Below, one piece after another: positions 3,530 to 42,765 of a DNA stretch of 64,000 nucleotides. This stretch comes from Escherichia phage ZX4221, in sequence record OR498728.1; one strand, 5' to 3'. The notes beneath the pieces are model-generated. The model was given only the letters and a program-made list of their open reading frames with translations. It ran no database searches and was not told the origin of the DNA. A program made the translations under genes and the position numbers. How positions within the stretch are numbered: the first letter of the stretch is position 1; each line of letters begins with the position of its first letter.

Positions 3530-3714
3530 TCAAGGTCAACAAGTCTTTGTAGGACTTTCCCTCTAGGTGTTACACCTTTTAAATCTGCATCGTAGCAATG
3601 GTAAAAGTCACCTTCAGCATGTCTACCATAACATTTTCTGATGTTCTGACTTCTGCGATATTGTTCTAATAATGATATCTTATAGTAATCTTCAACTGTA
3701 GTTAGTTTTTTCAT
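3496..3714 (-). CDS. hypothetical protein (72 aa)
   Basis: ORF-track ORF; stop overlaps start region of downstream gene. Confidence 0.4.
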   Translation of the reverse strand: MKKLTTVEDYYKISLLEQYRRSQNIRKCYGRHAEGDFYHCYDADLKGVTPRGKVLQRLVDLEWNKRLRGIGK

Positions 3715-4379
3715 TCTTTCACCATAGCATTTCTGAACTGACGTTGAGTTTCTCTTGTAATTTCGTCTGGAGTAAACCCTGCTTTCAGCATATCTCTGAA
3801 AAGAACTTCTAAGTGATTCTTTTCAATGATGTAAATTGCATTCTGCACAGATGTTTTAAGTTCCTTCAGGTCACTGCTAATTTCTTCGCACTTGTTGACA
3901 ATCTCTGTATCAACTTTCTTAAAGACTGGCATGGTATATCTACGACCACCATTAGCAGCATCCATGAAAAATTTAAAAGATTCCTCAGAGTCCTTTAAAG
4001 CAATCCCGATAAAGTCCTTGTAAGCACCTGTGAAAGCTAAAGACTCAATCTCAGCAGTTGAGTAAACAGTTCCTGCACACAGTCTTGCAGAGGTACTAAA
4101 TGTGTAGCTTTGTGTTATGTCAAAGTCTAAGTTCTTCAGTGGTCGAAAATAAACTGTGCCAGTATGTGAGACATGTGTTACAACAGCCTCCACACTCTTT
4201 GAAGGGTTCTGTTTAACATACAGGATAATTTTATCGTGTTCTTTCACTTTAGGCATATCTATTCTCCGGAAACTAAAAAAGGGAACTACCTCTCGATAGC
4301 TCCCATCATAGTTAATATTGTATACTCGGTCAAGAGTATTTTTTAGGCAGTAATGCGCTACGCTTGTTGCTCTCTTCAC
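3711..4379 (-). CDS. hypothetical protein (222 aa)
   Basis: ORF-track ORF in leftward operon. Confidence 0.5.
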   Translation of the reverse strand: MKRATSVAHYCLKNTLDRVYNINYDGSYREVVPFFSFRRIDMPKVKEHDKIILYVKQNPSKSVEAVVTHVSHTGTVYFRPLKNLDFDITQSYTFSTSARLCAGTVYSTAEIESLAFTGAYKDFIGIALKDSEESFKFFMDAANGGRRYTMPVFKKVDTEIVNKCEEISSDLKELKTSVQNAIYIIEKNHLEVLFRDMLKAGFTPDEITRETQRQFRNAMVKE

Positions 4380-5936: not shown

Positions 5937-6327
5937 AAAAACCTCTCTCTGCTTGTTCGATTTTTGCTCTTAAAATTTCACAATGTTGAAAATGGTAGTT
6001 AGCTTCTTGTTCATGTGTTGCTAACTGCCTTTCAAGAACAGTTTTATAATAACCTGCAAGTTGCTCTTTTGTCAACGGGTGTTCTGAAATAATATCAAGT
6101 CCACTTTCGCCAAGAGGGTTGAATTGTCCATACTCATTGACATTGTAAGTCTCAAACTTGAACAGGCCATTGTTCACAGACTCAATAGGCGACAGTTCAA
6201 CAAGCTCTACAGTAAACCGTGTATACACCTTGTCGCCTCTTGAAACCACATTATTTCCGACAATGCGTACAAGCGAACCATTACGTGTGTACTTAAAAGT
6301 CCCAAAGTCACTAGCCCAAAGCTTCAT
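5929..6327 (-). CDS. hypothetical protein (132 aa)
   Basis: ORF-track ORF; followed on its strand by terminator at 6342..6368. Confidence 0.5.
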   Translation of the reverse strand: MKLWASDFGTFKYTRNGSLVRIVGNNVVSRGDKVYTRFTVELVELSPIESVNNGLFKFETYNVNEYGQFNPLGESGLDIISEHPLTKEQLAGYYKTVLERQLATHEQEANYHFQHCEILRAKIEQAERGFYE

Positions 6328-6341
6328 AATTTTCTCCTTAG

Positions 6342-6368
6342 AAAATAAAAAAGGCTCCCGAAGGAGCC
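6342..6368 (-). terminator. Rho-independent terminator after endolysin gene
   Basis: Minus strand GGCTCC-TTCG-GGAGCC hairpin followed by TTTTTTATTTT. Confidence 0.7.
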
Positions 6369-6378
6369 TATGAAGATA

Positions 6379-6843
6379 TTACTTTGGGTATACACTGTCA
6401 AGATAAATGTCAGCTTCCATTCTACGTCTGTTTTTCAGACCATTTGAAGTGACCTTCTTACCTTTGACTGTAACCTTGTTCCACCACTGCATAGCTTCTG
6501 CACAACCTACCTTGTTACCAGCATTGTGGCGCTTGATAAATGTAGAATCCTGCATAGCTGTGATACCGATGTTGTATGTTTCACTTACAAGTGCATCGAA
6601 CTCATTCTGAGAAGTTGGAGCCTTGATAGCTTTATTCACTGCTGCAACAAACTTCTCAACATCTGCGAGAAGATACTGTTCAGCTTGTTCAGCCGTGATT
6701 TTCATACCCATCTTAACAGGTTTTCCGTCAATACGGATTGTACCATACCCAATTGTTGGGATTCCGGCAGAGTCTTCGTAAGCCTCTAACTTCAGACCTT
6801 CAAAGAACTTAATAGCTTCTAAACCTTTTCTTGAGAGTTGCAT
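6379..6843 (-). CDS. endolysin, T4-lysozyme-like (glycoside hydrolase family 24)
   Basis: N-terminal FEGLKLEAYEDSAGIPTIGYGT matches the T4 lysozyme catalytic Glu/Asp/Thr region; 154 aa. Confidence 0.8.
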   Translation of the reverse strand: MQLSRKGLEAIKFFEGLKLEAYEDSAGIPTIGYGTIRIDGKPVKMGMKITAEQAEQYLLADVEKFVAAVNKAIKAPTSQNEFDALVSETYNIGITAMQDSTFIKRHNAGNKVGCAEAMQWWNKVTVKGKKVTSNGLKNRRRMEADIYLDSVYPK

Positions 6844-11886: not shown

Positions 11887-11963
11887 CTCTGTTTAGCTCA
11901 GCTTGGTAGAGCGTTCCGTTTGGGGCGGTAAGGCCGGAGGTTCAAGTCCTCCAACAGAGACCA
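11887..11963 (+). tRNA. tRNA-Pro (anticodon TGG)
   Basis: Hand-folded: acceptor CTCTGTT/AACAGAG, D-stem GCTC/GAGC, anticodon loop TTTGGGG, T-arm GGAGG-TTCAAGT-CCTCC, CCA encoded. Confidence 0.75.
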
Positions 11964-11970
11964 AATTAAT

Positions 11971-12048
11971 GTTCCAGTAGACAAAACGGTAAAGTCACCA
12001 CTCTTTCAAAGTGGATATTTGAGGGTTCAAATCCCTTCTGGAACGCCA
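11971..12048 (+). tRNA. tRNA-Glu (anticodon TTC)
   Basis: Acceptor GTTCCAG/CTGGAAC, anticodon stem CCACT/AGTGG with loop CTTTCAA, T-loop TTCAAAT, CCA encoded. Confidence 0.7.
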
Positions 12049-12055
12049 GTCTTGA

Positions 12056-12128
12056 CAGAAGACCAATTGCAGCAAACTTAATCTTATTCATCTGACACGA
12101 AATCGGACAAAGAAGAGATTTGGTCTGG
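12056..12128 (+). ncRNA. Stem-closed structured element A (CAGAAGACC ... GGTCTGG family), Y-RNA-like candidate
   Basis: 5' CAGAAGACCAA pairs with 3' TTGGTCTGG (7 bp); conserved 5' box CAGAAGACCnnnTnCAGCAA; inner hairpin AATCT/AGATT; directly follows tRNA-Glu. Confidence 0.4.
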
Positions 12129-12139
12129 TCATTAAGAAT

Positions 12140-12216
12140 TGCGGGTATAGAGAAAGGGCGTCTCACATGTCTCATTAGCATGGTATCGGCAGGTTCGACT
12201 CCTGCACCCGCCTCCA
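12140..12216 (+). tRNA. tRNA-Met (anticodon CAT), copy 1
   Basis: T-arm GCAGG-TTCGACT-CCTGC, acceptor TGCGGGT/ACCCGCC with mismatch at pair 1-72, anticodon loop CTCATTA; CCA encoded. Confidence 0.6.
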
Positions 12217-12222
12217 ATTTTG

Positions 12223-12283
12223 CAGAAGACCGTATTCAGCAACAAACTACTTTTTGCGGATAAAAGAAAAAAACACGGTCTGG
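12223..12283 (+). ncRNA. Stem-closed structured element B (same family)
   Basis: 5' CAGAAGACCGT pairs with 3' ACGGTCTGG (7 bp); same 5' box as element A. Confidence 0.4.
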
Positions 12284-12294
12284 CAATGTATTAA

Positions 12295-12371
12295 GGTTAG
12301 GAAGCACATAAGGTATGTGCGGTCGCCTGTTAAGCGAATGGCACAGGGTTCGAATCCCTGACTAACCGCCA
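12295..12371 (+). tRNA. tRNA-Asn (anticodon GTT)
   Basis: D-stem GCAC/GTGC, anticodon loop CTGTTAA, T-arm CAGGG-TTCGAAT-CCCTG, acceptor GGTTAGG/ACTAACC, CCA encoded. Confidence 0.7.
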
Positions 12372-12380
12372 AATTTAAAT

Positions 12381-12468
12381 GTGTCGTTATCCCGTAGATG
12401 GTAGCGGTGGGGACTGTAAATCCCTTGTCATTGAGACTCGGTAGGTTCGACTCCTACACGGCACACCA
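12381..12468 (+). tRNA. tRNA-Tyr (anticodon GTA), long variable arm
   Basis: 88 nt; acceptor GTGTCGT/ACGGCAC, anticodon stem GGGGA/TCCCT loop CTGTAAA, T-arm GTAGG-TTCGACT-CCTAC, CCA encoded. Confidence 0.7.
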
Positions 12469-12474
12469 AATAAA

Positions 12475-12552
12475 GGTTATGTAGTTTAATCTGGTTAAAA
12501 TACTCCCCTGTCACGGGAGATGATGAGGGTTCAAATCCCTTCGTAACCGCCA
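12475..12552 (+). tRNA. tRNA-Asp (anticodon GTC)
   Basis: Anticodon stem CTCCC/GGGAG perfect, loop CTGTCAC, T-loop TTCAAAT, acceptor GGTTATG/CGTAACC, CCA encoded. Confidence 0.75.
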
Positions 12553-12639
12553 AATTATAATAAGTATTTCAAGATGATGTTTTGAGAGGGCTATTTAGCC
12601 CCTCCCTTAAAGAGTTCTTACGAGTATTCTTTAAAGGAG

Positions 12640-12713
12640 CAGAAGACCAAATGCAGCAAGAATGTATGAAATTTCAAGCCAATTTAATTTTGAAAATTTA
12701 AACTTGGTCTGGC
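12640..12713 (+). ncRNA. Stem-closed structured element C (same family)
   Basis: 5' CAGAAGACCAA ... 3' TTGGTCTGG; inner hairpin AAATTTCAA/TTGAAATTT. Confidence 0.4.
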
Positions 12714-12725
12714 TCAACAAATTTA

Positions 12726-12857
12726 CAGAAGACCGTTTACAGCAAAACTTAAACAATCTATTTCTCCGGTAAAGAAAAGGCGAAGGTTCGATTCCTTCAC
12801 TCGGCAGATGTCGAGTTGGTGTAATGGTAGCACTTAAGATGATAAACAACGGTCTGG
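12726..12857 (+). ncRNA. Stem-closed structured element D enclosing a circularly permuted tRNA-like module; Y-RNA (YrlA-type) candidate
   Basis: Outer 8 bp stem AGACCGTT/AACGGTCT; inside, in order: anticodon-like arm TTTCT-CCGGTAA-AGAAA, T-arm GAAGG-TTCGATT-CCTTC, ACTCGGC-A-GAT-GTCGAGT acceptor hairpin, D-arm GTGT-AATGGTA-GCAC. Confidence 0.5.
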
Positions 12858-12860
12858 TAA

Positions 12861-12999
12861 TTATCTTTGTAGATAAGTTATTAAGCTTCCCTGTGAGTAT
12901 GCGACCACAAAGGTGAAAGGGTAGATTCTAGATTTAACCCGAAAAGACACATCGCTACAGACCTTAAGCAAGTCTGGGTAGCTTATCTACAAAGATAAT
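12861..12999 (+). ncRNA. Structured element bounded by a perfect 17 bp inverted repeat
   Basis: TTATCTTTGTAGATAAG (12861-77) and its exact reverse complement (12983-99) enclose ~105 nt with internal hairpins. Confidence 0.4.
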
Positions 13000-13004
13000 T
13001 TAAT

Positions 13005-13080
13005 GGAAGTGTAGCAGAATGGTGATGCGGCAGACTTTTAATCTGACAGGCGATGGGTTCGAATCCCTCCACTTCTACCA
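13005..13080 (+). tRNA. tRNA-Lys (anticodon TTT)
   Basis: Acceptor GGAAGTG/CACTTCT, anticodon loop CTTTTAA, T-loop TTCGAAT with imperfect T-stem ATGGG/CCCTC, CCA encoded. Confidence 0.6.
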
Positions 13081-13084
13081 ATAT

Positions 13085-13161
13085 GGTTCAGTCGCAGATA
13101 AGGTAATGCAGGGGTTTCATAAGCCCTATGAATGTGGGTTCGATTCCCATCTGAACCTCCA
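13085..13161 (+). tRNA. tRNA-Met (anticodon CAT), copy 2 (initiator, elongator or Ile-lysidine not resolved)
   Basis: Acceptor GGTTCAG/CTGAACC perfect, anticodon stem GGGGT/GCCCT loop TTCATAA, T-arm GTGGG-TTCGATT-CCCAT, CCA encoded. Confidence 0.7.
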
Positions 13162-13162
13162 A

Positions 13163-13238
13163 GCTGGTATAGTTAAGAAGGTTATAACACTCCCCTGATA
13201 AGGGAACATCGGTGGTTCGATTCCACCTACCAGTACCA
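13163..13238 (+). tRNA. tRNA-Ile (anticodon GAT)
   Basis: D-stem GTTA/TAAC, anticodon loop CTGATAA, T-arm GGTGG-TTCGATT-CCACC, acceptor GCTGGTA/TACCAGT, CCA encoded. Confidence 0.7.
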
Positions 13239-13253
13239 ATTCCAATAAAGTTG

Positions 13254-13282
13254 TTGACATTGAGATGTGACCACTTTATAGT
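13254..13282 (+). promoter_or_regulatory. Internal sigma70-like promoter within tRNA array
   Basis: TTGACA 13254-59, 17 nt spacer, TATAGT 13277-82. Confidence 0.55.
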
Positions 13283-13574
13283 AACTAAAATACTTCATAA
13301 TATGTATAATTCAAACACCAATACATGAGTGTTAGACGTAACACAATGTGGGGAAATTTGTTGTACATATTCTGAATAGTTTTCGTTGCGTAGCGTCTAT
13401 TTTGCAAACTTAAAATAAATGCAAACGACAATGTTTTTCTGGCAGTAGCTTGATAGGCTAAACACCAGTGAGGTCTTCCAACCCCTCATCAAAGAATTTG
13501 GCGTACTCGCCCACGGTATGATTAATAAGGTGGGCATCTTTAAGGGCTTTTTAAGAGAGTCTTTAAAGATTAAT

Positions 13575-13651
13575 GCACCCTTAGTTCAACTGGACAGAGC
13601 AAATGACTTCTAATCATTGAGTTACAGGTTCGAATCCTGTAGGGTGTGCCA
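13575..13651 (+). tRNA. tRNA-Arg (anticodon TCT)
   Basis: Anticodon stem AATGA/TCATT perfect, loop CTTCTAA, T-arm ACAGG-TTCGAAT-CCTGT, acceptor GCACCCT/AGGGTGT, CCA encoded. Confidence 0.75.
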
Positions 13652-13793
13652 AATAGTTAGCAGATTGCTTAGACGACCTTATCGGGTCTCCGTGTAAGGA
13701 GGTGGTCTGTATCTCATGTTTTCCAGAACATGTAAATAATCTGAGAAGGGGCTTTACAGTGTTGCGAAAATACGGTAAGCTTCGAATTATAGT

Positions 13794-13876
13794 GTGGGAC
13801 GATGTTAAGACTCTAAGGCATGAGCAACGGCCTCCAAAACCGTTTCAAAGGGGTTCAACTCCTCCGTCCCATGCCA
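13794..13876 (+). tRNA. tRNA-Trp-like (anticodon CCA) with atypical extended D-region
   Basis: Acceptor GTGGGAC/GTCCCAT, anticodon arm ACGGC-CTCCAAA-ACCGT, T-loop TTCAACT, CCA encoded; about 8 extra nt between acceptor and D-stem, so canonical fold not achieved by hand. Confidence 0.4.
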
Positions 13877-13889
13877 AAGTCTTATTAGG

Positions 13890-13977
13890 GGTAGGTAGCG
13901 GCTAATGGTAGCCAAACTGTCTTGAAAACAGTTGCCACTGTAGAGATACGGTGAGGGTTCGACTCCTTTACTTACCG
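13890..13977 (+). tRNA. tRNA-Ser (anticodon TGA), long variable arm, CCA not encoded
   Basis: Acceptor GGTAGGT/ACTTACC, 3 bp D-stem, anticodon stem ACTGT/ACAGT perfect with loop CTTGAAA, ~20 nt variable arm, T-loop TTCGACT. Confidence 0.6.
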
Positions 13978-14235
13978 CCTAATAAGATTTTACACCGTCC
14001 ATGCTTGCTCGCATTTTCGGTTTATCCCTCGTGTATTGTCGTACACACTGATAAAGCACCTAGTAGGTGTCACGGAGAAGAGATAATATCAAGCTCTCCA
14101 AAGGTTCTAGTCACCGGATTGAACAAGACTATGCAAAGACCTAAATAGGTCTTTTTAGAGGGCTTCTAAGGTTATTACAGCTTGTTGTGGAACCTTGTTG
14201 CTTAGGTTCTTAGAAGTTCTCTAAAAAGATTTAAT

Positions 14236-14312
14236 GCACCTATAGCCCAACTGGTAGAGGCAGCAGACTTAGAATCTGCTCAGTGTGAGTTCGAATCTCT
14301 CTAGGTGTACCA
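14236..14312 (+). tRNA. tRNA-Leu-type anticodon TAG, class I (short variable arm) architecture
   Basis: 77 nt; acceptor GCACCTA/TAGGTGT, anticodon stem GCAGA/TCTGC perfect, loop CTTAGAA, 5 nt variable loop, discriminator A, CCA encoded. Confidence 0.6.
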
Positions 14313-14319
14313 AATTAAT

Positions 14320-14395
14320 GCAGGTGTAGCAAAATGGTTATGCGGCTGACTCTTAATCAGTAAGACGATGGGTTCAATTCCCTCCACCTGTACCA
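14320..14395 (+). tRNA. tRNA-Lys (anticodon CTT)
   Basis: Paralog of tRNA-Lys(TTT): acceptor GCAGGTG/CACCTGT, anticodon loop CTCTTAA, T-loop TTCAATT with same imperfect T-stem, CCA encoded. Confidence 0.6.
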
Positions 14396-14401
14396 AACAT
14401 T

Positions 14402-14477
14402 GGGGATGTAGTTTACATGGTTAAAACATAAGTTTTGCAAACTTAAGTACAGGGTTCAATTCCCTGCTTCTCCACCA
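14402..14477 (+). tRNA. tRNA-Ala (anticodon TGC)
   Basis: G3:U70 wobble pair present in acceptor stem; anticodon stem TAAGT/ACTTA perfect, loop TTTGCAA; T-arm CAGGG-TTCAATT-CCCTG; CCA encoded. Confidence 0.75.
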
Positions 14478-14483
14478 ATTAGT

Positions 14484-14558
14484 GCATCCATAGTTTAAAC
14501 GGGAAAATTACAGTCTTCCAAACTGAGGTTGAGGGTTCGATTCCCTCTGGATGCTCCA
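14484..14558 (+). tRNA. tRNA-Gly (anticodon TCC)
   Basis: Acceptor GCATCCA/TGGATGC perfect, anticodon loop CTTCCAA, T-arm GAGGG-TTCGATT-CCCTC, CCA encoded. Confidence 0.75.
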
Positions 14559-14565
14559 AATTAAT

Positions 14566-14641
14566 GCTCCTATCGTATAATTGGCTATTACGGTTGCCTT
14601 GTAAGCAACTTATCAGGGTTCGAATCCTTGTGGGAGCACCA
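14566..14641 (+). tRNA. tRNA-Thr (anticodon TGT)
   Basis: Anticodon stem GTTGC/GCAAC perfect, loop CTTGTAA, T-arm CAGGG-TTCGAAT-CCTTG, acceptor GCTCCTA/TGGGAGC, CCA encoded. Confidence 0.75.
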
Positions 14642-14645
14642 ATTC

Positions 14646-14731
14646 AGAGGTCAAGTGAAAGACCGCTGGTGTCAACTGAAGACCGTAACAAATTCCACGG
14701 AGTTGAGTTAGCGGCACAACTTCAGACCTCT
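14646..14731 (+). ncRNA. Structured element E, divergent relative of the CAGAAGACC family
   Basis: Outer stem AGAGGTC/GACCTCT; contains CTGAAGACCGTAACAAATT resembling the family 5' box; nested stems CCGCT/AGCGG and CTGAAG/CTTCAG. Confidence 0.3.
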
Positions 14732-14736
14732 TTCAT

Positions 14737-14811
14737 ACTCGCTTAGTTTATATGGTAAAACATCACCCTTACAAGATGGAGAAAAAGGTTCAAGTCCTTT
14801 AGTGAGTACCA
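14737..14811 (+). tRNA. tRNA-Val (anticodon TAC)
   Basis: D-stem GTTT/AAAC, anticodon loop CTTACAA, T-arm AAAGG-TTCAAGT-CCTTT, acceptor ACTCGCT/AGTGAGT, CCA encoded. Confidence 0.7.
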
Positions 14812-14812
14812 T

Positions 14813-14890
14813 GTTCCAGTATCCCAATTGGCAGAGGATGCAAGCTCAAACCTTGTACTAGTGACGGTTCGAATCCGTCTTGGAACACCA
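14813..14890 (+). tRNA. tRNA-Leu-type anticodon CAA, class I (short variable arm) architecture
   Basis: 78 nt; acceptor GTTCCAG/TTGGAAC, anticodon stem GCAAG/CTTGT, loop CTCAAAC, ~6 nt variable loop, T-arm GACGG-TTCGAAT-CCGTC, discriminator A, CCA encoded. Confidence 0.55.
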
Positions 14891-14895
14891 ATTTT

Positions 14896-14971
14896 GCAGG
14901 ATTAGTTCAAATGGATAGAGCAACAGTCTACGAAGCTGTTAATAGGGGTTCGAATCCCTTATCCTGCGCCA
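14896..14971 (+). tRNA. tRNA-Arg (anticodon ACG)
   Basis: Acceptor GCAGGAT/ATCCTGC perfect, D-stem GTTC/GAGC, anticodon loop CTACGAA, T-loop TTCGAAT, CCA encoded. Confidence 0.75.
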
Positions 14972-14989
14972 GATAAGTAAGAGGAATTT

Positions 14990-15232
14990 ATGCAAACATT
15001 AATCGTCGTTGAACATGAAAATTCCAATAGTATTGAGTTTGTAAGGGTTCCCACTATAGATACCCACATTTTCTTGAAAGTCGGATGGGGATGTGACCCA
15101 ATAAAAGTAGAAAATTTTATTGGTCATTACTTTGGTGGAAGACAACTTAAAAGCGTCAATTTTGAGACAATGTTACCAGAAAACTCAGAAACAAATAATA
15201 ATGTTTATCTCCTTACGAGGATTAGACAATGA
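14990..15232 (+). CDS. hypothetical protein inside tRNA array (80 aa)
   Basis: AAGAGGA Shine-Dalgarno 6 nt before ATG; stop overlaps next start (ATGA). Confidence 0.45.
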   Translation: MQTLIVVEHENSNSIEFVRVPTIDTHIFLKVGWGCDPIKVENFIGHYFGGRQLKSVNFETMLPENSETNNNVYLLTRIRQ

Positions 15233-15786
15233 GATATCTGAAGTATGCTTCATGGATTTTCCTAGCTTTGTTAGACCCATTGGCAGCAACCTTAGCAGTT
15301 ATCTTAGCACCCTTTGTAGTCCCATTCTACAGTGAGAAGAAAGGCCATCTACCTTTTGGATTCAGATGGATGGAGACATATGACAACCCGATTGATGGCG
15401 ATGAAGGTCATATGAAACGATGGGCTAAGATTAGAAAGATTGGTAAGCTCGGTGTCTATATGCAGAGAGTTGGCTGGCTCTGGAGAAACAAAGCTTATAA
15501 CTTCTCTTACCATGTGTTAGGAAGAGATGTAAAAGATGTTACTAAGTGGAAAGGTAATATCAACGTGAGTTCTGACCCTGAAGATAATCAGACAGGTTAT
15601 CTCCTAATGTGGAACAGTAATGCTTGGGGATTATTTGCTTTTATCCCATCAATTAAAATCTTTGGTAAACAATTCTACTGGAGAATTTATGTTGGATGGA
15701 AACTTAAAAGTGTTGTCCCAGAAGAAAGAGCATTCTCAAGGGAAAGAGTTATGTTGGCATTCTTTATTCATCCACTGAGAAAGTAA
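15229..15786 (+). CDS. hypothetical protein with hydrophobic N-terminus inside tRNA array (185 aa)
   Basis: ORF-track ORF; translationally coupled to 14990..15232; N-terminal WIFLALLDPLAATLAVILAPFVVPF looks membrane-associated. Confidence 0.5.
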   Translation: MRYLKYASWIFLALLDPLAATLAVILAPFVVPFYSEKKGHLPFGFRWMETYDNPIDGDEGHMKRWAKIRKIGKLGVYMQRVGWLWRNKAYNFSYHVLGRDVKDVTKWKGNINVSSDPEDNQTGYLLMWNSNAWGLFAFIPSIKIFGKQFYWRIYVGWKLKSVVPEERAFSRERVMLAFFIHPLRK

Positions 15787-15794
15787 AGATTTAA

Positions 15795-15870
15795 AGGGGA
15801 TTAGTTTACAAGGTTAAAACCTCGGTCTTTGAAATCGAAGAAGTTGGTTCAATTCCAACATCCCCCGCCA
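15795..15870 (+). tRNA. tRNA-Gln (anticodon TTG)
   Basis: Anticodon stem TCGGT/ATCGA, loop CTTTGAA, T-arm GTTGG-TTCAATT-CCAAC, A1-C72 mismatch at top of acceptor, discriminator G, CCA encoded. Confidence 0.65.
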
Positions 15871-15872
15871 AT

Positions 15873-15951
15873 GCTCCATTACTCCAATTGGCAGAGAGGC
15901 CAGACTTAAAATCTGTGTTATGTATCGGTTCGAATCCGATATGGAGTACCA
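15873..15951 (+). tRNA. tRNA-Leu-type anticodon TAA, class I (short variable arm) architecture
   Basis: 79 nt; acceptor GCTCCAT/ATGGAGT, anticodon stem CAGA/TCTG, loop CTTAAAA, ~7 nt variable loop, T-arm ATCGG-TTCGAAT-CCGAT perfect, discriminator A, CCA encoded. Confidence 0.55.
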
Positions 15952-15956
15952 AATTT

Positions 15957-16032
15957 AGCGGTATAGCATAACTGGCAATGCAGCAGTCTCTGAAGCTGTC
16001 TTATTAAGGTTCAAATCCTTATGCCGCTGCCA
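15957..16032 (+). tRNA. tRNA-Gln (anticodon CTG)
   Basis: Acceptor AGCGGTA/TGCCGCT, D-stem GCAT/ATGC, anticodon loop CTCTGAA, T-arm TAAGG-TTCAAAT-CCTTA, discriminator G, CCA encoded. Confidence 0.65.
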
Positions 16033-16063
16033 CTTCTAAGGGTTCTTACGAGAGTCCTTAAAT

Positions 16064-16139
16064 GTGGCCTTATCATAAATGGTAATGACCCATGCTGTGA
16101 ACATGGTCTATACGGGTTCAAATCCCGTAGGTCACCCCA
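16064..16139 (+). tRNA. tRNA-His (anticodon GTG)
   Basis: Anticodon stem CCATG/CATGG perfect, loop CTGTGAA, D-stem TCAT/ATGA, T-arm ACGGG-TTCAAAT-CCCGT, discriminator C; no encoded G-1 (preceding base is T). Confidence 0.7.
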
Positions 16140-16145
16140 ATTTAT

Positions 16146-16221
16146 AGTCCAAGTAGCTTATATGGTTAAAGCGCGTGTCTGAAAAACATGAGAAGAGGGT
16201 TCAAATCCCACTGGACTACCA
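16146..16221 (+). tRNA. tRNA-Phe (anticodon GAA), irregular acceptor/linker geometry
   Basis: Anticodon stem CGTGT/ACATG, loop CTGAAAA, D-stem GCTT/AAGC, T-loop TTCAAAT; acceptor pairs only as 6 bp or with a 4 nt linker to the D-stem; boundaries uncertain. Confidence 0.55.
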
Positions 16222-16237
16222 ATTTCAAAGGTGCTTA

Positions 16238-16972
16238 ATGAAAGAGATGACAGAACAAGGTAAGGAGATTTTTAATCTCTTAAAAACCGGTAGAGGGTTT
16301 TCTAATCCCCTTATTACTGGTGCAGCAGTTCTCGGTGGAACCGTAGCTGCCTCTACATCACTTGTAAGCTCTATTAGCTCTGTAACAGACCCTACAATAA
16401 AGGATAAGCTTATTGCTGCTGGACTTACAACAGTTCTGCTTAACAGCTTTACAACGAGTCTGACAAGCACTACATCAACCACTAAGACACTGACAGATTA
16501 TGGTCAAAAGTCCATTGATGAGTTTTCATCACGTATGCAGGTAGCAAAAGGATATTCCAATGTTATGGGTGCAGCAGGAGAACAAGTCGGTTGTACACCA
16601 TTTAGTGGTATTATGGGTGTTGCTACAGAATATGGTCAAAAAGCTATTGACACAATTAACAGTGCACTAGATGGTGTTAATGATGTGTTAAGTGACTTAC
16701 AAGATGCTATTGATGAAGGTCTTGATACTATTTCTGATTTAGCTAACCAAGCTGTTAGCAAGATTAATGAAGGTATCTCGAAGATTACAGCTTATGCAGA
16801 TGAAGTTGTGCAGATGATTGAAGAAGAAGCTGCCCTTATTGCAGAGTACCTTAAAACGAATATCAATGGGTTCTTAGCAGGTATCTTACCAGACTGGTTT
16901 GATGATGCTTGTAAAACTGGTGTAATTGATACTATTGCAACACCAGAAATGAAGAACGCATTACAGAAATAA
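16238..16972 (+). CDS. hypothetical Ser/Thr-rich protein (244 aa)
   Basis: ORF-track ORF trimmed to first ATG with RBS (AAAGG) that does not overlap tRNA-Phe. Confidence 0.5.
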   Translation: MKEMTEQGKEIFNLLKTGRGFSNPLITGAAVLGGTVAASTSLVSSISSVTDPTIKDKLIAAGLTTVLLNSFTTSLTSTTSTTKTLTDYGQKSIDEFSSRMQVAKGYSNVMGAAGEQVGCTPFSGIMGVATEYGQKAIDTINSALDGVNDVLSDLQDAIDEGLDTISDLANQAVSKINEGISKITAYADEVVQMIEEEAALIAEYLKTNINGFLAGILPDWFDDACKTGVIDTIATPEMKNALQK

Positions 16973-16973
16973 T

Positions 16974-17066
16974 GGAAGATTAACCCTAAAAGGTAAGGGA
17001 GCAGTTTGCTAAACTGCCAGTAGCTGAGAAATCGGTGTACCAGTTCAAGTCTGGTATCTTCCTCCA
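16974..17066 (+). tRNA. tRNA-Ser (anticodon GCT), long variable arm
   Basis: 93 nt; acceptor GGAAGAT/ATCTTCC perfect, anticodon stem GCAGT/ACTGC perfect, loop TTGCTAA, T-arm ACCAG-TTCAAGT-CTGGT, CCA encoded. Confidence 0.75.
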
Positions 17067-17070
17067 ATTT

Positions 17071-17146
17071 GAATCCGTGACAGAAATGGCTATGTGCCTG
17101 TCTGCAAAACAGGTTTATAAGGGTTCGAGTCCCTTCGGATTCTCCA
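17071..17146 (+). tRNA. tRNA-Cys (anticodon GCA)
   Basis: Acceptor GAATCCG/CGGATTC perfect, anticodon stem CCTGT/ACAGG perfect, loop CTGCAAA, T-arm AAGGG-TTCGAGT-CCCTT, CCA encoded. Confidence 0.75.
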
Positions 17147-36866: not shown

Positions 36867-38042
36867 ATGGCAGTAGGTGAAATTCAAATTAGTGCCTTGC
36901 CACAAGCGGCCTTACCAGTTGATTTAAGTGATATCTTCCACCTTAAGCAAGGTGTTGAGGATAAAAGATGTACGCTTGAACAGTTGTTAGCACCTCACGC
37001 ATCTCTGAGGAATAATCCTCATGGTGTAACTAAATCACAAGTGGGTCTTGATAATGTTATTAACTCTCTCCAATTAGTTGCAGCCAATAACTTGTCAGAC
37101 ATTGTGAATGTTGCTGAGGCAAGAGCAAATCTACAAATTATGTCGTCAGAAGAAGTGAATAACTCAATTCAGCAACATATTGACGACAAAAGTAACCCAC
37201 ACAATACAACGAAAGCACAGGTAGGTTTAAGTAATGTTCAGAACTGGACAACATCTAATCTGTACAATGAAGATGCTGATAAGTACGCTACCGCGAGAGC
37301 AGTGAATAATTTATACAAAGCTATTCAAGCATCATATCCAGTAGGGACTATTCACCTATCTGTTAACTCTGCCAACCCATCCACTTACTTGCTTTGTGGA
37401 GGTACTTGGGAGTTAGTTTCTAAAGGTAGAGCACTGGTTGGTTATGATACAGATTCTAGACCTGTTGGTTCAACTTTTGGTTCTCAGACTGTAGTATTGA
37501 CAAATAACAATTTACCAGCACATACTCACTCTATCTATCTAACAGGGGGTGGTCATACACACTCTGCAAGTGTATCTATCTCTAGTTTTGATTATGGTTC
37601 AAAGAGTACATCAACTTTTGACTACGGTACGAAGGCAACTAACAGTGCTGGTGCTCACACCCACACATTTAGTGGAACGACAAGTAATGCTGGTAACCAC
37701 AACCATAGAGTACCTCTGAGGGGTAATGATAGAAGTGGGTCAAATGCTATTACCGCATCTGCTGATGCTGGGGTTGGTAATGCTTCATATACTGACTTAG
37801 CTGGTGCTCACACCCATAGCTTCTCAGGTACAACTGCATCATCTGGTGCTCATAGTCATACTGTTGCAATTGGTGCTCACAGCCACACTGTCAATATTGG
37901 TTCACACAGTCATACGGGCACTGTTACTGTTTCTAGCTCTGAGCATACACACTCAGGGACATCTGGTTCTGTTGGTGGTGGTCAAGCTTTCAGTGTTGAG
38001 CAGCCATCTTTTGTAGTATATGTGTGGCAGAGAACAGCTTAA
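36867..38042 (+). CDS. tail fibre protein (short), C-terminal His-box repeats
   Basis: Repeated HTHS/AHTH/HSHT motifs and C-terminus ...FSVEQPSFVVYVWQRTA shared with the next gene. Confidence 0.6.
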   Translation: MAVGEIQISALPQAALPVDLSDIFHLKQGVEDKRCTLEQLLAPHASLRNNPHGVTKSQVGLDNVINSLQLVAANNLSDIVNVAEARANLQIMSSEEVNNSIQQHIDDKSNPHNTTKAQVGLSNVQNWTTSNLYNEDADKYATARAVNNLYKAIQASYPVGTIHLSVNSANPSTYLLCGGTWELVSKGRALVGYDTDSRPVGSTFGSQTVVLTNNNLPAHTHSIYLTGGGHTHSASVSISSFDYGSKSTSTFDYGTKATNSAGAHTHTFSGTTSNAGNHNHRVPLRGNDRSGSNAITASADAGVGNASYTDLAGAHTHSFSGTTASSGAHSHTVAIGAHSHTVNIGSHSHTGTVTVSSSEHTHSGTSGSVGGGQAFSVEQPSFVVYVWQRTA

Positions 38043-38051
38043 TTTCTTTAC

Positions 38052-38072
38052 AGGGGCTTTGTAGCCCCTTTT
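38052..38072 (+). terminator. Rho-independent terminator
   Basis: AGGGGCT-TTGT-AGCCCCT hairpin followed by TTTT. Confidence 0.65.
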
Positions 38073-38088
38073 AAGAGGAAAATTTATA

Positions 38089-40638
38089 ATGGCAGATTAC
38101 AAATTGAGTCAATTAAACTCAATCGACACAATTCGTTCAGAAGACCTATTGCACATCAGAGTTAAGAAAAGACCTGAAATGTTGGGTGACGAAGACCGTA
38201 GAATGACCTATCAAGACTTCTTAGCTTCCTTCAAACTAGAAAGGTTTGTTCAGATTGCTGGGAGTACTATGGTTGGGGATTTAGGTATTGTCAAGTTACT
38301 TTACGGTGGTAAGGCAGTATTTGACCCAACAGGCTCTTCTGAGATTACTATTGGGGATATTTTAAAGACTTTTAAAATTAACTCAAATGGGCTTAAACTC
38401 ACTATTGCAGATGCCACAAGGTCGGCAACTGTTTATCATACTTTGAATAAACCAAGCCCTAATGAACTTGGTATGAGAACTAATGAAGAGAATGATGCAA
38501 GATATGCAAGGCTTGCTGTTACAAACACATTCTCTGGGACTCAGAACATTCAAGGTGATGCTAACTTACTTCGCCTTAGAAACCGAAATGCAAACAATGC
38601 ACAATACATTGAAGGTGTAAACCCAGATGGTTCAGCTAGATGGTGGGTTGGTATTGGTAGCAATGGTTCTGACGAAGTAAAACTGTACAATAACAAATAC
38701 AACTCAGTCTTGACTGTTGCAAGTAATATCTCTGTTAATAAGTCTTTAGCAATCACTGGACAAGTCCAACCTTCAGATTTCTCTAACTTAGATGCTAGAT
38801 ACTTTACTCAGACAGTTGCTAATCAGAGATTTGCACAGTTAGCTGGCAATAATACTTTTACAGGTGCTAACACATTTAGGACTATGAGTGTTATTTCAAA
38901 TGCTGCTGCTATCACACTGCAATGTGCATCAGCAAACGAATCACTGTATCTACTTGCAAAAGATTATGAAGGTGGAAACTTATGGTATCTTGGTAAAGGT
39001 AGTTCAGGTGCTGGTGTAACTATCTACAACTATACCACTAACACCTCTTTGGTCTTAGATGCTGCTGGAGTATCAGCAAATAAAAATGTCAGAATCACTG
39101 GACAAGTTCAACCTTCAGATTGGGCTAACATTGACTCTAGATATATTCCGGCAGCAACATTAAGTACAATTGCAAGAACTAATGCAAGGAATACTTTTAA
39201 TGGTGTACAGACAGTTGTTACGGATAATGAAGGTCTGATTGTTAAAAACTCTACTCAGAATAGACCATTATATATTCGTGGTGTGGACACTGCTAATGTA
39301 TCAAGATGGTGGATTGGTGTTGGTGGTGCTGATACGAATGATGTTACCCTAAATAACAGTTATTCTGGAACCCAATTGGTTCTCGGGAATACAACATCAT
39401 ACATTAACAAAACATTGACTATTGCTGGACAAGTTCAACCTTCAGATTTTTCTAACTTAGATGCTAGATACTTTACGCAAAGTGCTAGTGATAGCAGATA
39501 CCTAAGAATCAGAAGCACTAGCTTCAATGTGGGAAACACTGAGAAGTGGGCTAAAATTGCCACTGTTGTGATGCCACAATCAGCATCAACTGCTGTTATT
39601 GAGGTATTTGGTGGGTCAGGTTTTAATATTAATACACCACAACAAGCAGGTAAATGTGAAATTGTTCTGCGAACTTCAAATAACAATCCAAAGGGCTTAA
39701 ATGTTGTTGCTTGGAGAACATCAGATAACACCATCGTCAGGGATATTGGTTATGTGAATACTTCTGGAGACACCTATGATATTTACTATCTTGCTGGTAC
39801 GTATCAAAACAGCACAACGACAAGGGTTCAGTCTTCTAGGAATGCAAGTGTACAGTTGTTTGAAGTCCCACAGACATTTGATGATGCTCCACAAGGTATT
39901 GTGAAGGGTACAATTGCAAAATACTACACAAGTTTGCAAAAACCAACCCCTTCAGATATTGGTGCATACACTAAAGCAGAGACTGACCAGAAGATTGCAG
40001 ATGCAATTAGTGACTCTACAGACCTGAATAAAATCTATCCAGTAGGTATTGTGACGTGGTTTAACAGCAATGTTAACCCTAATACAGCACTTCCTGGGTT
40101 AACTTGGACGTACCTGAACAATGGTGTTGGTAGAACTATTAGGATTGCAGCAGCAAATGGTTCAGATGTTGCTACAACTGGTGGTTCAGATTCTGTAACG
40201 TTATCTGTTGGTAACTTACCTTCACACACGCATAGTTTCTATGCTACCACTTCATCATTTGATTATGGTACTAAGACGACAAATACGACTGGCAACCATG
40301 CTCATGATAGAGGTAACATGGAAATTTCTGGTGTGTTTGGTTGGTTCAGAAGTGATAACGGTGCATTCTACACTGCTAGTGGTGCATTTGTGATGGGTGG
40401 TAGTCAGGCTTCGCATGGCTTCACAGGCTCTAACTTCACTTATGGTGCGCCTGTTGATTTCCACGCGTCAAGAACTTGGACAGGTGTAACCAACACGACT
40501 GGTAACCACGCCCACAGTGTAGGTATTGGCGCTCACAGCCACACAGTTAGTGGTAACACAGGTGGTACTGGTTCTGGTTCAGCATTTAGTGTTACTAACC
40601 AGTTCTATAAGCTAATGGCTTGGGTAAGAACTGCTTAA
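38089..40638 (+). CDS. tail fibre protein (long), internal repeats and C-terminal His-box domain
   Basis: 849 aa; three internal copies of ...ITGQVQPSD(F/W)(S/A)N(L/I)D(A/S)RY...; C-terminal NLPSHTHSF ... GNHAHSVGIGAHSHTV ... MAWVRTA. Confidence 0.65.
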   Translation: MADYKLSQLNSIDTIRSEDLLHIRVKKRPEMLGDEDRRMTYQDFLASFKLERFVQIAGSTMVGDLGIVKLLYGGKAVFDPTGSSEITIGDILKTFKINSNGLKLTIADATRSATVYHTLNKPSPNELGMRTNEENDARYARLAVTNTFSGTQNIQGDANLLRLRNRNANNAQYIEGVNPDGSARWWVGIGSNGSDEVKLYNNKYNSVLTVASNISVNKSLAITGQVQPSDFSNLDARYFTQTVANQRFAQLAGNNTFTGANTFRTMSVISNAAAITLQCASANESLYLLAKDYEGGNLWYLGKGSSGAGVTIYNYTTNTSLVLDAAGVSANKNVRITGQVQPSDWANIDSRYIPAATLSTIARTNARNTFNGVQTVVTDNEGLIVKNSTQNRPLYIRGVDTANVSRWWIGVGGADTNDVTLNNSYSGTQLVLGNTTSYINKTLTIAGQVQPSDFSNLDARYFTQSASDSRYLRIRSTSFNVGNTEKWAKIATVVMPQSASTAVIEVFGGSGFNINTPQQAGKCEIVLRTSNNNPKGLNVVAWRTSDNTIVRDIGYVNTSGDTYDIYYLAGTYQNSTTTRVQSSRNASVQLFEVPQTFDDAPQGIVKGTIAKYYTSLQKPTPSDIGAYTKAETDQKIADAISDSTDLNKIYPVGIVTWFNSNVNPNTALPGLTWTYLNNGVGRTIRIAAANGSDVATTGGSDSVTLSVGNLPSHTHSFYATTSSFDYGTKTTNTTGNHAHDRGNMEISGVFGWFRSDNGAFYTASGAFVMGGSQASHGFTGSNFTYGAPVDFHASRTWTGVTNTTGNHAHSVGIGAHSHTVSGNTGGTGSGSAFSVTNQFYKLMAWVRTA

Positions 40639-40717: not shown

Positions 40718-40915
40718 ATGCCTACAATCCTAGCAATTCTTCTAAAAAATCTAGGTAGCTTCTTCTGGAAACTCATTTTATCCCTTCTAAGTGAATACAT
40801 GATTGAGAAAGTGTTCTTTAAGCTTGCAAGATATCTTGCGAGTAAAACAGACACACCTATTGATGATGAGTTCGTAGATAACTTAGAAAAAGCTTTTAAG
40901 GGGGAGAATAAATGA
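40718..40915 (+). CDS. hypothetical small protein with hydrophobic N-terminus (65 aa), possible lysis-associated
   Basis: ORF-track ORF. Confidence 0.35.
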   Translation: MPTILAILLKNLGSFFWKLILSLLSEYMIEKVFFKLARYLASKTDTPIDDEFVDNLEKAFKGENK

Positions 40916-41283
40916 AGTGGCTAGAGGAAGCTTTTAAAAATAATATTGGTGCAATTGTAGTTGGTATTTTTAGTGTTATTGGGATGTATACCACCATGCA
41001 AGTCTCGGATGGTAAGCAAGAAGTGTCTGTCACAACAAAGTTACAGCAGCTAGATAATTATAGCAAATCTAATTACTCAGCTATTCGTGATTTACAGTCT
41101 GACATGAGACTGATTCAGCTAGGGATGGAGAACCAGAAAGTTCAGTTAGAGAATGTTAAGGGTGAGAATGCAAAACTTACTAAGACTCTTGATAAATTCT
41201 CTGACAGTGTGAACAATCTGGCTCAATCAGTATCAGCCTTGCAAGCTATTACTGAAAAGAACACAAAGAATACTGAAAAATAA
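40912..41283 (+). CDS. membrane-anchored coiled-coil protein (spanin- or holin-like candidate)
   Basis: One N-terminal TM (IGAIVVGIFSVIGMYTTM) followed by heptad-like Q/L/N-rich sequence. Confidence 0.4.
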   Translation: MKWLEEAFKNNIGAIVVGIFSVIGMYTTMQVSDGKQEVSVTTKLQQLDNYSKSNYSAIRDLQSDMRLIQLGMENQKVQLENVKGENAKLTKTLDKFSDSVNNLAQSVSALQAITEKNTKNTEK

Positions 41284-41290
41284 AATTTAA

Positions 41291-41315
41291 GGCTCCTTTT
41301 TACGGGAGCCTTTTT
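41291..41315 (+). terminator. Terminator at convergence point of rightward and leftward modules
   Basis: GGCTCC-TTTTTAC-GGGAGCC hairpin followed by TTTTT. Confidence 0.65.
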
Positions 41316-41318
41316 GTT

Positions 41319-42218
41319 TTACTTGCCTACTGACAGAGGTGCTTCAATCTTACCTGCATGTTGGTAGTTATTAATCCCACCAATAAAATCACTTGCTGTA
41401 AGATGTTTTAAGTCACTTAAAGTGTTAAGTGAGATACCAATCTCAAAAGTTGGTGCATGGAACTCTTCATTGTTCATCAGTTCATAAACCTGTTTCATAT
41501 GGTTCTGATAAATCTGAGTATCTCCAAAGACACCTATCAAGTACCGTGGAGTGTATCCAGTCATCTTACAAAGAACTTCCAGAATAAAACCGTAAGATGC
41601 AATATTAAACGGAAGTCCTAAAAAGGTGTCTACTGAACGTTGATACCATTGTAAGTCAACTTCACCCTCGTTAGTGATATAAATCTGAAACAGAACATGA
41701 CAAGGTGCTAAAGCCATTGAGTTTGCTGCAATATCTGCTGCATTCCAAGCATTAACAAGCATGTAACGGTCTGTGATATCACCCTTCATCTTCGCTACTA
41801 AGGTCTCTAGTTGGTCTACAACACAACCATTATGACCTTCAAAGTTTCTCCACTGAACTCCGTAGATTCTTCCACCTGCATCTTCTAACCAATCTTGTTC
41901 AGAGGAATAATTAGAGCTTAACCAGCGTTTAAAATCGTCTGACCAGATTGTCCAGCGTTCTCCATCATTTTCACCCCAAGTACGGTAACGGAGTTCACCC
42001 AGCTTATTCTCACCGTTCAGAAACCATAAAGCTTCACCGATAACTTGTCGTGTAAACACCTGTTTAGATGTTAAGAGTGGGAAACCAGTTCGCATATCAA
42101 AACGAAACTGAGGTGGAGCAAATGCAGAGATAACATCTCCAGTTCGTGTAGTACGCAGTTCACCAACTGATAAAACATGGTTCAGAATATTTTTGTAACT
42201 TGTATCTGCTTGTGACAT
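41319..42218 (-). CDS. thyA: thymidylate synthase
   Basis: ALAPCHVLFQIY ... QLYQRSVDTFLGLPFNIASY matches the ThyA active-site region (E. coli ALAPCHAFFQFY ... LYQRSCDVFLGLPFNIASY). Confidence 0.9.
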   Translation of the reverse strand: MSQADTSYKNILNHVLSVGELRTTRTGDVISAFAPPQFRFDMRTGFPLLTSKQVFTRQVIGEALWFLNGENKLGELRYRTWGENDGERWTIWSDDFKRWLSSNYSSEQDWLEDAGGRIYGVQWRNFEGHNGCVVDQLETLVAKMKGDITDRYMLVNAWNAADIAANSMALAPCHVLFQIYITNEGEVDLQWYQRSVDTFLGLPFNIASYGFILEVLCKMTGYTPRYLIGVFGDTQIYQNHMKQVYELMNNEEFHAPTFEIGISLNTLSDLKHLTASDFIGGINNYQHAGKIEAPLSVGK

Positions 42219-42219
42219 A

Positions 42220-42765
42220 TCAAAAGTGTCCTTTTACTTGTGGTGTATAGATATCAAAAGTTGCTTTTCCATCTGCTGATGGTCTTGACTGAATCTTAGC
42301 GAAAATTTTACGGTCATGCAACTTGTCAAAGAAGTTCTCAAAAGGTAGATACACAGTTGCCTCTTCAGTAACTTCATGGAAAACTGTATGGAACACTACA
42401 TCAGCATATGGTAAAGCACTGACAAGGATACCTGCACCACCAATTACGAAAACATCCTCTTCAATATTACTATCAAGATACTTTAAAAATGCTCCAAAAG
42501 AGTCTTTATGAGCTTTAGCAAACATAACATCATCTTTACTAAAATCTATACCGTAATAAGGCACAGAGTTTGTCAAGATAAGATTTTCACGTTCAGGTAA
42601 AGGTTTACTTCCCAGAGTCTTGAAAGTCTCGTTACCCATTACTACTAAATTGTCTTTAGTGAGTCTCTTAAACTCTTGCATATCCTCTTTATGTCGAGGC
42701 CACGGCATACCAGTTGGAGTACCAAACTCACCATTTTCACCACTTGCAAAGATTAATTTAATCAT
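42220..42765 (-). CDS. dihydrofolate reductase
   Basis: N-terminal MIKLIFA..NGEFG...MPW...LVVMGNETFKTLG..LPER.NLILT resembles DHFR; immediately upstream of thyA on the same strand. Confidence 0.8.
   Translation of the reverse strand: MIKLIFASGENGEFGTPTGMPWPRHKEDMQEFKRLTKDNLVVMGNETFKTLGSKPLPERENLILTNSVPYYGIDFSKDDVMFAKAHKDSFGAFLKYLDSNIEEDVFVIGGAGILVSALPYADVVFHTVFHEVTEEATVYLPFENFFDKLHDRKIFAKIQSRPSADGKATFDIYTPQVKGHF

Follow-up and report, generated by a model that had tools for sequence, protein, structure and literature searches.

The fibre locus

This analysis concerns a pair of tail fibre genes of Escherichia phage ZX4221, contained in a stretch of 64,000 nucleotides (nt) from sequence record OR498728.1 that is called the window below. 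An earlier note, made from the sequence alone, had placed two such genes at positions 36867 to 40638, and these limits were found to be exact: the region is occupied by two adjoining open reading frames (ORFs) on the + strand. PHROG, Pfam and the annotation of phage wV8 agree that both are tail fibre genes.

36867..38042, + strand: short tail fibre (STF) gene, 391 amino acids (aa); ORF with a match to phrog_2097, tail fiber protein (E = 3e-137)
38089..40638, + strand: long tail fibre (LTF) gene, 849 aa; ORF with a match to phrog_4277, tail fiber protein (E = 0)

The two proteins very probably serve as the baseplate fibres of a Felix O1-like myophage (Felixounavirus, wV8 group), with receptor-binding tips of the T4 gp37 type. 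The LTF is a protein of Escherichia phage ZX4221 (100% identity), and the DNA of the fibre region showed 96% identity to Escherichia phages KEP2 and vB_EcoM_H12 (all of the matches named belong to Felixounavirus) and 94% identity to wV8 and the O157 typing phages of the same genus. In wV8, gp82 and gp83 are both annotated as tail fibre proteins, and 382 of the 391 residues of the STF are identical to those of gp82 (97.7%). The counterparts of the STF are wV8 gp82, Felix O1 NP_944921, VpaE1 gp74 and Bas63 gp26; those of the LTF are wV8 gp83, VpaE1 gp75 and Bas63 gp27. Along the window, the baseplate wedge genes are followed by an ORF of 100 aa, the STF, the LTF, two small ORFs and, on the opposite strand, td and frd. 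The same gene order around the fibres was found in wV8 and in a related metagenomic contig (L002; ENA ERZ28585085 scaffold_106), so that orthology and synteny point the same way. The window is a wV8-like Felixounavirus genome, and the two genes are the fibre pair of a Felix O1-like myophage.

Matches to the fibre region (~79% or more) also include records labelled "Campylobacter phage A132" (e.g. MG065664.1) and one "Staphylococcus" phage; these host labels look doubtful.

Likeness of the tips to T4 gp37 and gp10

The STF contains 24 histidines, 18 of which lie within nine His-x-His (HxH) motifs (aa 219, 230, 264, 278, 315, 329, 338, 347 and 360). Four such motifs are present in the LTF (aa 713, 737, 807 and 816). 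Shuffling the residues gave a mean of 1.4 motifs for the STF and 0.16 for the LTF, and none of the 20,000 shuffles reached nine or four, respectively. The repeated motifs described in the earlier note, HTHS, AHTH and SHSH, are all present. The HxH motifs are divided between an outgoing and a returning strand, four and five in the STF, two and two in the LTF. Among 75 STF homologues, a set that reaches down to 32% identity, five of the nine motifs (H219/221, H278/280, H315/317, H338/340 and H347/349) were conserved in at least 90% of sequences; their histidines are among the few positions conserved to this degree, as are W387 and R389 near the C-terminus.

Residues 146-362 of the STF match the structure of the T4 gp37 tip (PDB 2XGF) with E = 2.3e-27, and the alignment includes an ungapped block of 103 aa in which all seven HxH motifs of T4 face an HxH motif of the STF. 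For the LTF, the match is weaker (aa 710-828, E = 6e-8) and three HxH positions are matched. A profile built from the 75 STF homologues found 2XGF at 1.1e-28 and the C-terminal domain of T4 gp10 (2FKK) at 5.6e-11. Both fibres also score above the gathering cut-off of 27 bits for the Pfam family Gp10_C, the STF with 68.7 bits and the LTF with 27.8 bits. Three features of a gp37-type tip were found in the sequences: homology to 2XGF, conserved HxH repeats running in two directions and a gp10-type collar that includes the extreme C-terminus. In T4, the HxH motifs of the gp37 tip bind iron (2XGF, Bartual et al. 2010, as summarized in PMC12609058). The claim that HxH motifs of this kind coordinate metal in known phage fibre tips is borne out by this structure, which both fibres match; binding in the window's own fibres would follow by homology.

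Since the sole Pfam match of the 391-aa protein is Gp10_C and its best Foldseek hits are T4 and KP1 gp10 chains, it might be thought to be a gp10-like structural baseplate protein that shares the collar fold, rather than a receptor-binding fibre. This is hardly credible. The match to the gp37 tip, including needle and head, is far stronger (E = 2e-27). The STF head is hypervariable, and STF head cassettes recur in long fibres and in T4-type heads. In addition, the homologue in Bas63 was seen as a fibre of 430 Å (PMC12609058).

The reading as gp37-type fibres leads to the following model. Each fibre protein most likely forms a homotrimer, which its conserved N-terminus would anchor on the baseplate wedge. 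The receptor-binding tip would be made up of the C-terminal ~230 residues and consist of a gp10-type collar, a needle and a distal head. In the needle, each chain would run out and back, so that three chains form a six-stranded beta structure, and layers of six histidines, with one HxH from each chain, would hold metal ions on the axis (Fe2+ in T4). The small distal head is predicted to contact the receptor, after which the chain would return and its last residues would close the collar. The STF would have a long needle with nine HxH motifs and a head of 34 aa. The LTF would have a short needle with four HxH motifs, a head of 67 aa and a shaft of three repeats, similar to those of gp34 and T7 gp17, plus a middle beta domain. 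The parts of the STF tip were assigned as follows.

37302..37529, + strand: STF collar domain, first part, gp10-type (aa ~146-221), ending in NLPAHTHS; from Pfam Gp10_C, the 2FKK profile and the Foldseek hits to gp10
37617..37892, + strand: STF tip cassette (aa 251-342), running from FDYGTK to AIGAHSHTV and taking in the distal needle and the head; from the 2XGF alignment and the exchange breakpoints of relatives
37707..37808, + strand: STF head (aa 281-314), predicted receptor-contacting tip; from its variability and its position between ascending and descending His boxes
37953..38039, + strand: STF C-terminal stretch (...AFSVEQPSFVVYVWQRTA), predicted to run back to the collar; from the family consensus compared with the T4 gp10 C-terminus IQPYITVYRWIRIA

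The edges of the STF cassette coincide with exchange breakpoints in relatives, and the head aligns with the segment of T4 gp37 that lies between the ascending and descending HxH motifs. Two repetitive features were seen in the DNA of this gene. A tandem periodicity of 27 nt at 37844-37909 (2.4 copies, 76% matches) codes for the consecutive His boxes IGAHSHTV and IGSHSHTG. Of the element GGTGCTCAC..CAC found there, the STF gene contains five copies and the LTF gene one.

Parts of the long fibre

The LTF is built from more parts than its tip, and these were delimited as follows.

38089..38505, + strand: LTF N-terminal region (aa 1-139); highly conserved among 117 homologues (identity 0.90-1.00)
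38506..39501, + strand: three LTF shaft repeats, each ending in ITGQVQPSD(F/W)xN(L/I)DxRY; from alignment and PF20744
39502..39933, + strand: LTF middle beta-rich domain (aa 472-615); AlphaFold2 predicted local distance difference test (pLDDT) mostly 50-85, beta strands
39934..40257, + strand: LTF collar domain, first part (aa 616-723), ending in NLPSHTHS; identity 0.93-1.00 in relatives, Gp10_C 27.8 bits
40258..40548, + strand: LTF tip cassette (aa 724-820), from FDYGTK through the head to GIGAHSHTV; from the divergence from wV8, the DNA match to phage CJY920 and the 2XGF alignment
40306..40506, + strand: LTF head core (aa 740-806), the part predicted to contact the receptor; identity ~0.55, compared with ~1.0 in the flanks
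40549..40635, + strand: LTF C-terminal stretch (...AFSVTNQFYKLMAWVRTA), predicted to run back to the collar; identity 0.99-1.00 in relatives, aligns with the STF C-terminus

A role of the N-terminal region in attachment to the baseplate was assigned after the cryo-electron microscopy (cryo-EM) of Bas63 (PMC12609058). The three internal repeats that had been proposed for the LTF are real, with a length of ~110 aa each: they span aa 140-248, 249-361 and 362-471, with 38-46% identity to repeat 1 in the alignment, and the Pfam family PF20744 (gp37_trimer) matched three stretches of the protein (E = 6.8e-77). The linkers of the repeats (ITGQVQPSDFSNLDARYFTQ), at 38735-38810, 39077-39152 and 39404-39479, are 76 nt long with 70-84% DNA identity; linkers 1 and 3 share 66 nt at 91%. 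They are possible substrates for the replacement of a repeat, and repeat 2 is the very block found to differ from wV8. The middle domain varies as well, as alternative versions of ~91 aa with 17-21% identity were found in 18 of the 118 sequences of the set.

Comparison of the two C-termini within the genome

The earlier note had claimed that the two fibres share a His-box C-terminal domain with a near-identical C-terminus and that modules are exchanged between the two genes. The common domain is well supported: homology between the C-terminal domains was detected by BLASTP (E = 8e-12, 29% identity) and by tblastn (1e-15), with identities of 29-32%, and both domains match the T4 gp37 tip. Near-identity was not found when the C-termini were aligned, with ~30% identity over the domain. 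The STF ends in ...VYVWQRTA and the LTF in ...LMAWVRTA, and a manual count gave four identities in the final six residues and 13 in the final 30. The W-x-R-T-A ending reads as a conserved motif and not as a near-identical sequence.

A structural reason for this likeness is offered by gp10. The ending of the STF family, "qafnveqpslvvyvWkRta", aligns with the gp10 ending "TSITNIQPYITVYRWIRIA", a match which taken alone is not significant (2.0 bits, E = 8.4e+02). The shared C-terminus would correspond to the closing stretch of the gp10-type collar, reached after the out-and-back run of the chain, and the STF and LTF would end alike because their last residues (...W-x-R-T-A) close the collar.

The likeness could also stem from a recent duplication or gene conversion within this genome. 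The same short DNA motifs do lie at the cassette edges of both genes (FDYG, 24 nt at 83%; GIGAHSHTV, 35 nt at 80% or 20 nt at 95%), and the related contig L002 indicates that such conversion between an STF and an LTF can happen. For the pair in the window, it is very improbable: the protein identity of the tips is 29-32%, and the longest stretch of DNA common to the two genes is 35 nt at 86%. The heads, with 34 and 67 aa, are unrelated in sequence, and in the sample the LTF head type was seen on LTF scaffolds only and the STF head type on STF scaffolds only. Since no common DNA tract exceeds 35 nt, a recent exchange between these two genes was rejected. The proposed modular exchange thus fails for the gene pair of the window (35 nt at 86%) and holds between the fibre slots of its relatives. 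In sum, the interpretation given in the earlier note was mostly right, and wrong about near-identity and about exchange within this pair.

Exchange of head cassettes among relatives

Comparisons among relatives provide good support for a unit of exchange, a head cassette of ~290 nt bounded at its left edge by the coding motif FDYGTK and at its right edge by that of GIGAHSHTV. The edges were identical in four comparisons: the window with wV8, the STF with the LTF of L002, SPJ41 with D1-2, and the window LTF with CJY920. Five cassette types were present on both STF and LTF scaffolds at an identity of at least 75%. For the Salmonella phage SPJ41 (STF) and phage D1-2 (LTF), both isolates, 63 of 64 cassette residues are identical (manual count).

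In contig L002, the cassettes of the STF (3514-3804) and of the LTF (6164-6454) share 291 nt at 96.9%, differing at 9 of 291 positions, and the flanks are far less similar. Both fibres of this phage would carry the same head, which could be the result of a real gene conversion or of a chimeric assembly. Matches of the L002 cassette at two places per record were considered as a sign of widespread sharing within genomes. This was rejected, as in ECML-1, the one record examined, the second place proved to be a 30-nt His-box edge.

Exchange also appears to reach beyond the genus. Positions 2158-2447 of the window LTF gene (40246-40535, 290 nt) show 87.9% DNA identity to gene 37 of the Tequatrovirus CJY920 (PQ349265.1, a GenBank record marked "UNVERIFIED"; gp37 at L005 1136-4372). 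In the gp37 of CJY920 (1078 aa), the head type of the window LTF (95% aa identity) is set in a T4-type collar and needle. The middle domain of this gp37 resembles that of the Felixounavirus LTF, and a gp38-like ORF comes after the gene. A second phage of 170 kb, vB_EcoM-ZQ3, has the LTF head type at 69%. In the other direction, a T4 gp37-like head (...HYIEAWNGTG.GG.K.SSYA.SYR.GG...) occurs in some Felixounavirus fibres, on the long or the short scaffold (LTF proteins P0206, P0211, P0232, P0233, P0237 and P0238; STF protein P0024). These heads are about 80-90% identical to that of T4, as estimated from the alignments.

Taken together, these sequence comparisons give good support to cassette swaps from phage to phage, from one fibre slot (STF or LTF) to the other, and into gene 37 of T4-like phages. 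As to the mechanism, recombination at the motif edges would account for them. For T-even gp37, Tétart, Krisch and colleagues reportedly proposed recombination mediated by His boxes that form its edges, which the present exchange mirrors. The cassette may even be a freely portable module that travels among Ounavirinae genomes and between these and T4-like phages, and the pair of heads in the window may be a co-adapted set for two receptors; we hold this idea only tentatively and would sooner bet against it. As a speculative example, one head of such a set might be directed at the group 4 capsule and the other at GlcIII of the R3 core.

Variation, hosts and receptors

Across 71 full-length homologues, the identity of the STF fell to 0.11-0.19 at aa 281-310 and was ~0.4-0.85 outside the head. 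Across 117 homologues of the LTF, identity was 0.9-1.0 in the N-terminus, in the collar and over the final 50 residues, and the variable parts were repeat 2, the middle domain and the head (~0.55 at aa 741-800). At least 13 unrelated head types were found at the head position of the LTF in relatives. The comparison with wV8 gave the same picture on a smaller scale: in the 3.8-kb region, only repeat 2 of the LTF (~38.85-39.1 kb) and the head cassette (~40.23-40.52 kb) have diverged in DNA, and the remainder is ~96% identical. The LTF head of the window is ~65% identical in aa to that of wV8, 92% to that of Sf14 and 100% to those of Silverhawkium, PHB11 and SME50. Phages of the VpaE1 type carry head cassettes other than those of the window fibres.

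The tips are plausible determinants of host range because they are the variable parts of the fibres among relatives, which agrees with what the earlier note had suggested. It is likewise plausible that the heads determine specificity, as suggested by their hypervariability, the swapping of cassettes and the joint presence of the head types in phages of O157/Shigella-type hosts. When the lists were compared, each of the two head types of the window, that of the LTF and that of the STF, was present in 59 phage records, with 56 in common. The records comprise phages of Felixounavirus and Mooglevirus that have E. coli O157:H7, Shiga toxin-producing E. coli (STEC) O103/O111, Shigella and Citrobacter as hosts, and two T4-like phages carry the LTF head without the STF head. 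Shared ancestry alone may explain the co-occurrence of the two heads.

Typing phages of the same genus give an indication of the receptors. According to a 2026 preprint, TP11 and TP15 require the group 4 capsule as well as GlcIII at the end of the R3 lipopolysaccharide (LPS) core (bioRxiv 10.64898/2026.07.23.740414). The STF heads of these phages are 90% identical to that of the window and the LTF heads 63.5%. By analogy, the window's heads are likely to target the outer core of the LPS, a surface polysaccharide, or both, on O157/Shigella-type hosts.

Fibre tips are a textbook determinant of host range in a group of phages used for typing and biocontrol of Salmonella and E. coli O157. The cassette edges given here (STF aa 251-342, 37617-37892; LTF aa 724-820, 40258-40548) are of value for engineering, since natural head swaps recur at these edges, which makes them sensible junctions for retargeting.

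Structure prediction and the case for metal binding

Monomer models were made with AlphaFold2 from alignments of 75 sequences for the STF and 52 for the LTF. The STF model reached a mean pLDDT of 71.8, with the head below 50; a monomer cannot represent an intertwined trimer. Its long strands, at 222-237 and 350-365, flank a set of short ones, which is consistent with a chain that runs out and back. The best Foldseek hits of this model were gp10 collars (T4 and KP1 chains; prob 0.93-0.99, E > 0.01) and pore toxins with long beta-hairpins, and the latter were found because the monomer model is hairpin-shaped. For the LTF, Foldseek gave meaningful matches for the shaft alone. The repeats and the middle region resemble T7 gp17 (prob 1.0, E = 2.5e-4) and T4 gp34 (prob 0.85-0.93), with low TM-scores (template modelling scores) because the monomer model is extended. 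In sequence, the likeness to a shaft of the T4 gp34/T7 gp17 type is marginal (4A0U, E = 0.011).

Several points weigh against fibres with metal-stapled, gp37-type tips. The Foldseek search of the STF monomer against the PDB gave no match with E <= 0.001, and 2XGF was absent among the hits listed. The LTF monomer had a mean pLDDT of 54.4, with the whole tip (aa 614-849) below 50. With four HxH motifs, three of which align to T4 positions, the needle of the LTF may be very short or differently built. The metal binding and the trimeric structure are predictions from sequence, the metal being assigned by homology. The receptors were assigned by analogy with typing phages whose LTF head is only 63.5% identical. 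Lastly, the sole case found of a cassette shared within one genome, L002, is a metagenome-assembled contig and could be a chimera.

It could be argued from these results that HxH is a compositional or structural trait of a beta repeat rich in Gly, Ser, Thr and His, with no metal involved, and that the LTF possibly has a larger globular tip. This fits with the failure of AlphaFold2 to give a confident model of the tip and of Foldseek to recover 2XGF, and with an LTF that matches T4 at three HxH positions only and has a head twice as long. Even so, we regard this explanation as improbable. Across distant homologues, no other tip residues are as well conserved as the histidines, and the seven iron-binding HxH positions of T4 are all matched without a gap in the STF. 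The T4-like gp37 of CJY920 bears the same head as the LTF in a T4 collar and needle. Furthermore, the cryo-EM density of Bas63 supports an arrangement of collar, needle and head for both fibres (PMC12609058). The preferred reading therefore remains that of two gp37-type tips, with metal binding put forward as a prediction, because a monomer model cannot judge an intertwined trimer stapled by metal.

Neighbouring features

Between the two fibre genes, a hairpin was read from the sequence.

38053..38072, + strand: hairpin GGGGCT-TTGT-AGCCCC and then TTTT, in the intergenic gap that separates the STF from the LTF

At the equivalent site in wV8, a rho-independent terminator is annotated. A scan for consensus promoters and terminators found nothing beyond the expectation from shuffling and did not call this hairpin. 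It could control the ratio of STF to LTF expression.

Downstream of the LTF (40718-41283) are two small ORFs of 65 and 123 aa, which are membrane-associated by appearance. The homologue of the first (65 aa) in L002 matches PF26925 Phage_PM2_Gpl. A strong bidirectional terminator hairpin (41289-41312) separates these ORFs from the oppositely oriented td and frd (41319-42765). Further away, 26 transfer RNA (tRNA) genes, including tRNA-His(GTG), are clustered on the + strand at 11887-17146. Such a large set is consistent with the genus, since VpaE1 was reported with 22 tRNA genes (PMC4690856).

Comparison with known systems

That both fibres of this genus have gp37-type tips was already known. 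The 2015 study of VpaE1 described gp74 (aa 146-362) and gp75 (aa 584-780) as homologous to the T4 gp37 adhesin, and reported that the N-termini of Felix O1-like fibres are conserved and their C-termini variable (PMC4690856). The cryo-EM study of Bas63 in 2025 revealed an STF of 430 Å and an LTF of 630 Å, each made up of a collar like that of gp37, an HxH needle and a head, and set the numbers of di-histidine motifs against those of T4 (PMC12609058). The finding in the window is therefore correct and not new, and opens no new biological question. A useful by-product is the precise definition of the cassette edges, together with the evidence that cassettes move between fibre slots and between phage families.

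Within the group, wV8 gp82/gp83, the fibres of the typing phages TP1/8/11/12/15, VpaE1 gp74/gp75 and Sf14 gp52/gp53 are orthologous fibre pairs, and the Sf14 paper described the same two-fibre arrangement in Mooglevirus. Bas63 (JohannRWettstein; STF gp26, LTF gp27) belongs to the same genus and has the same two fibres with gp34-like shaft repeats (PMC12609058). Its wedge 2 and wedge 1 proteins have 489 and 285 aa, compared with 489 and 284 aa for the upstream ORFs of the window. The published counts of di-histidine motifs differ, with seven in the STF and six in the LTF of Bas63 and nine and four in the window; the head cassettes therefore probably differ.

Like T4 gp37, both fibres appear to have a collar, a His-box needle, a head and a chain that doubles back, and a C-terminal ending of the hydrophobic-R-x-A type (T4-type ...NYIVRLA in the gp37 of CJY920). 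Unlike T4 gp37, which has seven HxH motifs, the STF has nine and the LTF four, and the head sequences of the window are unrelated to that of T4. No gp38-like gene adjoins the fibre genes of the window, whereas one is present beside gp37 in the T4-like CJY920. Each fibre here is a single protein placed directly on the baseplate, whereas T4 gp37 is the distal quarter of a fibre made of four proteins. With T4 gp10 (2FKK; PF21939 Gp10_C), the two fibres share the collar fold and the motifs YPVG..., NLPA and the C-terminal QP..VY.W.R.A. The alignments with gp10 span the collar alone, with no equivalent of the needle or head aligned.

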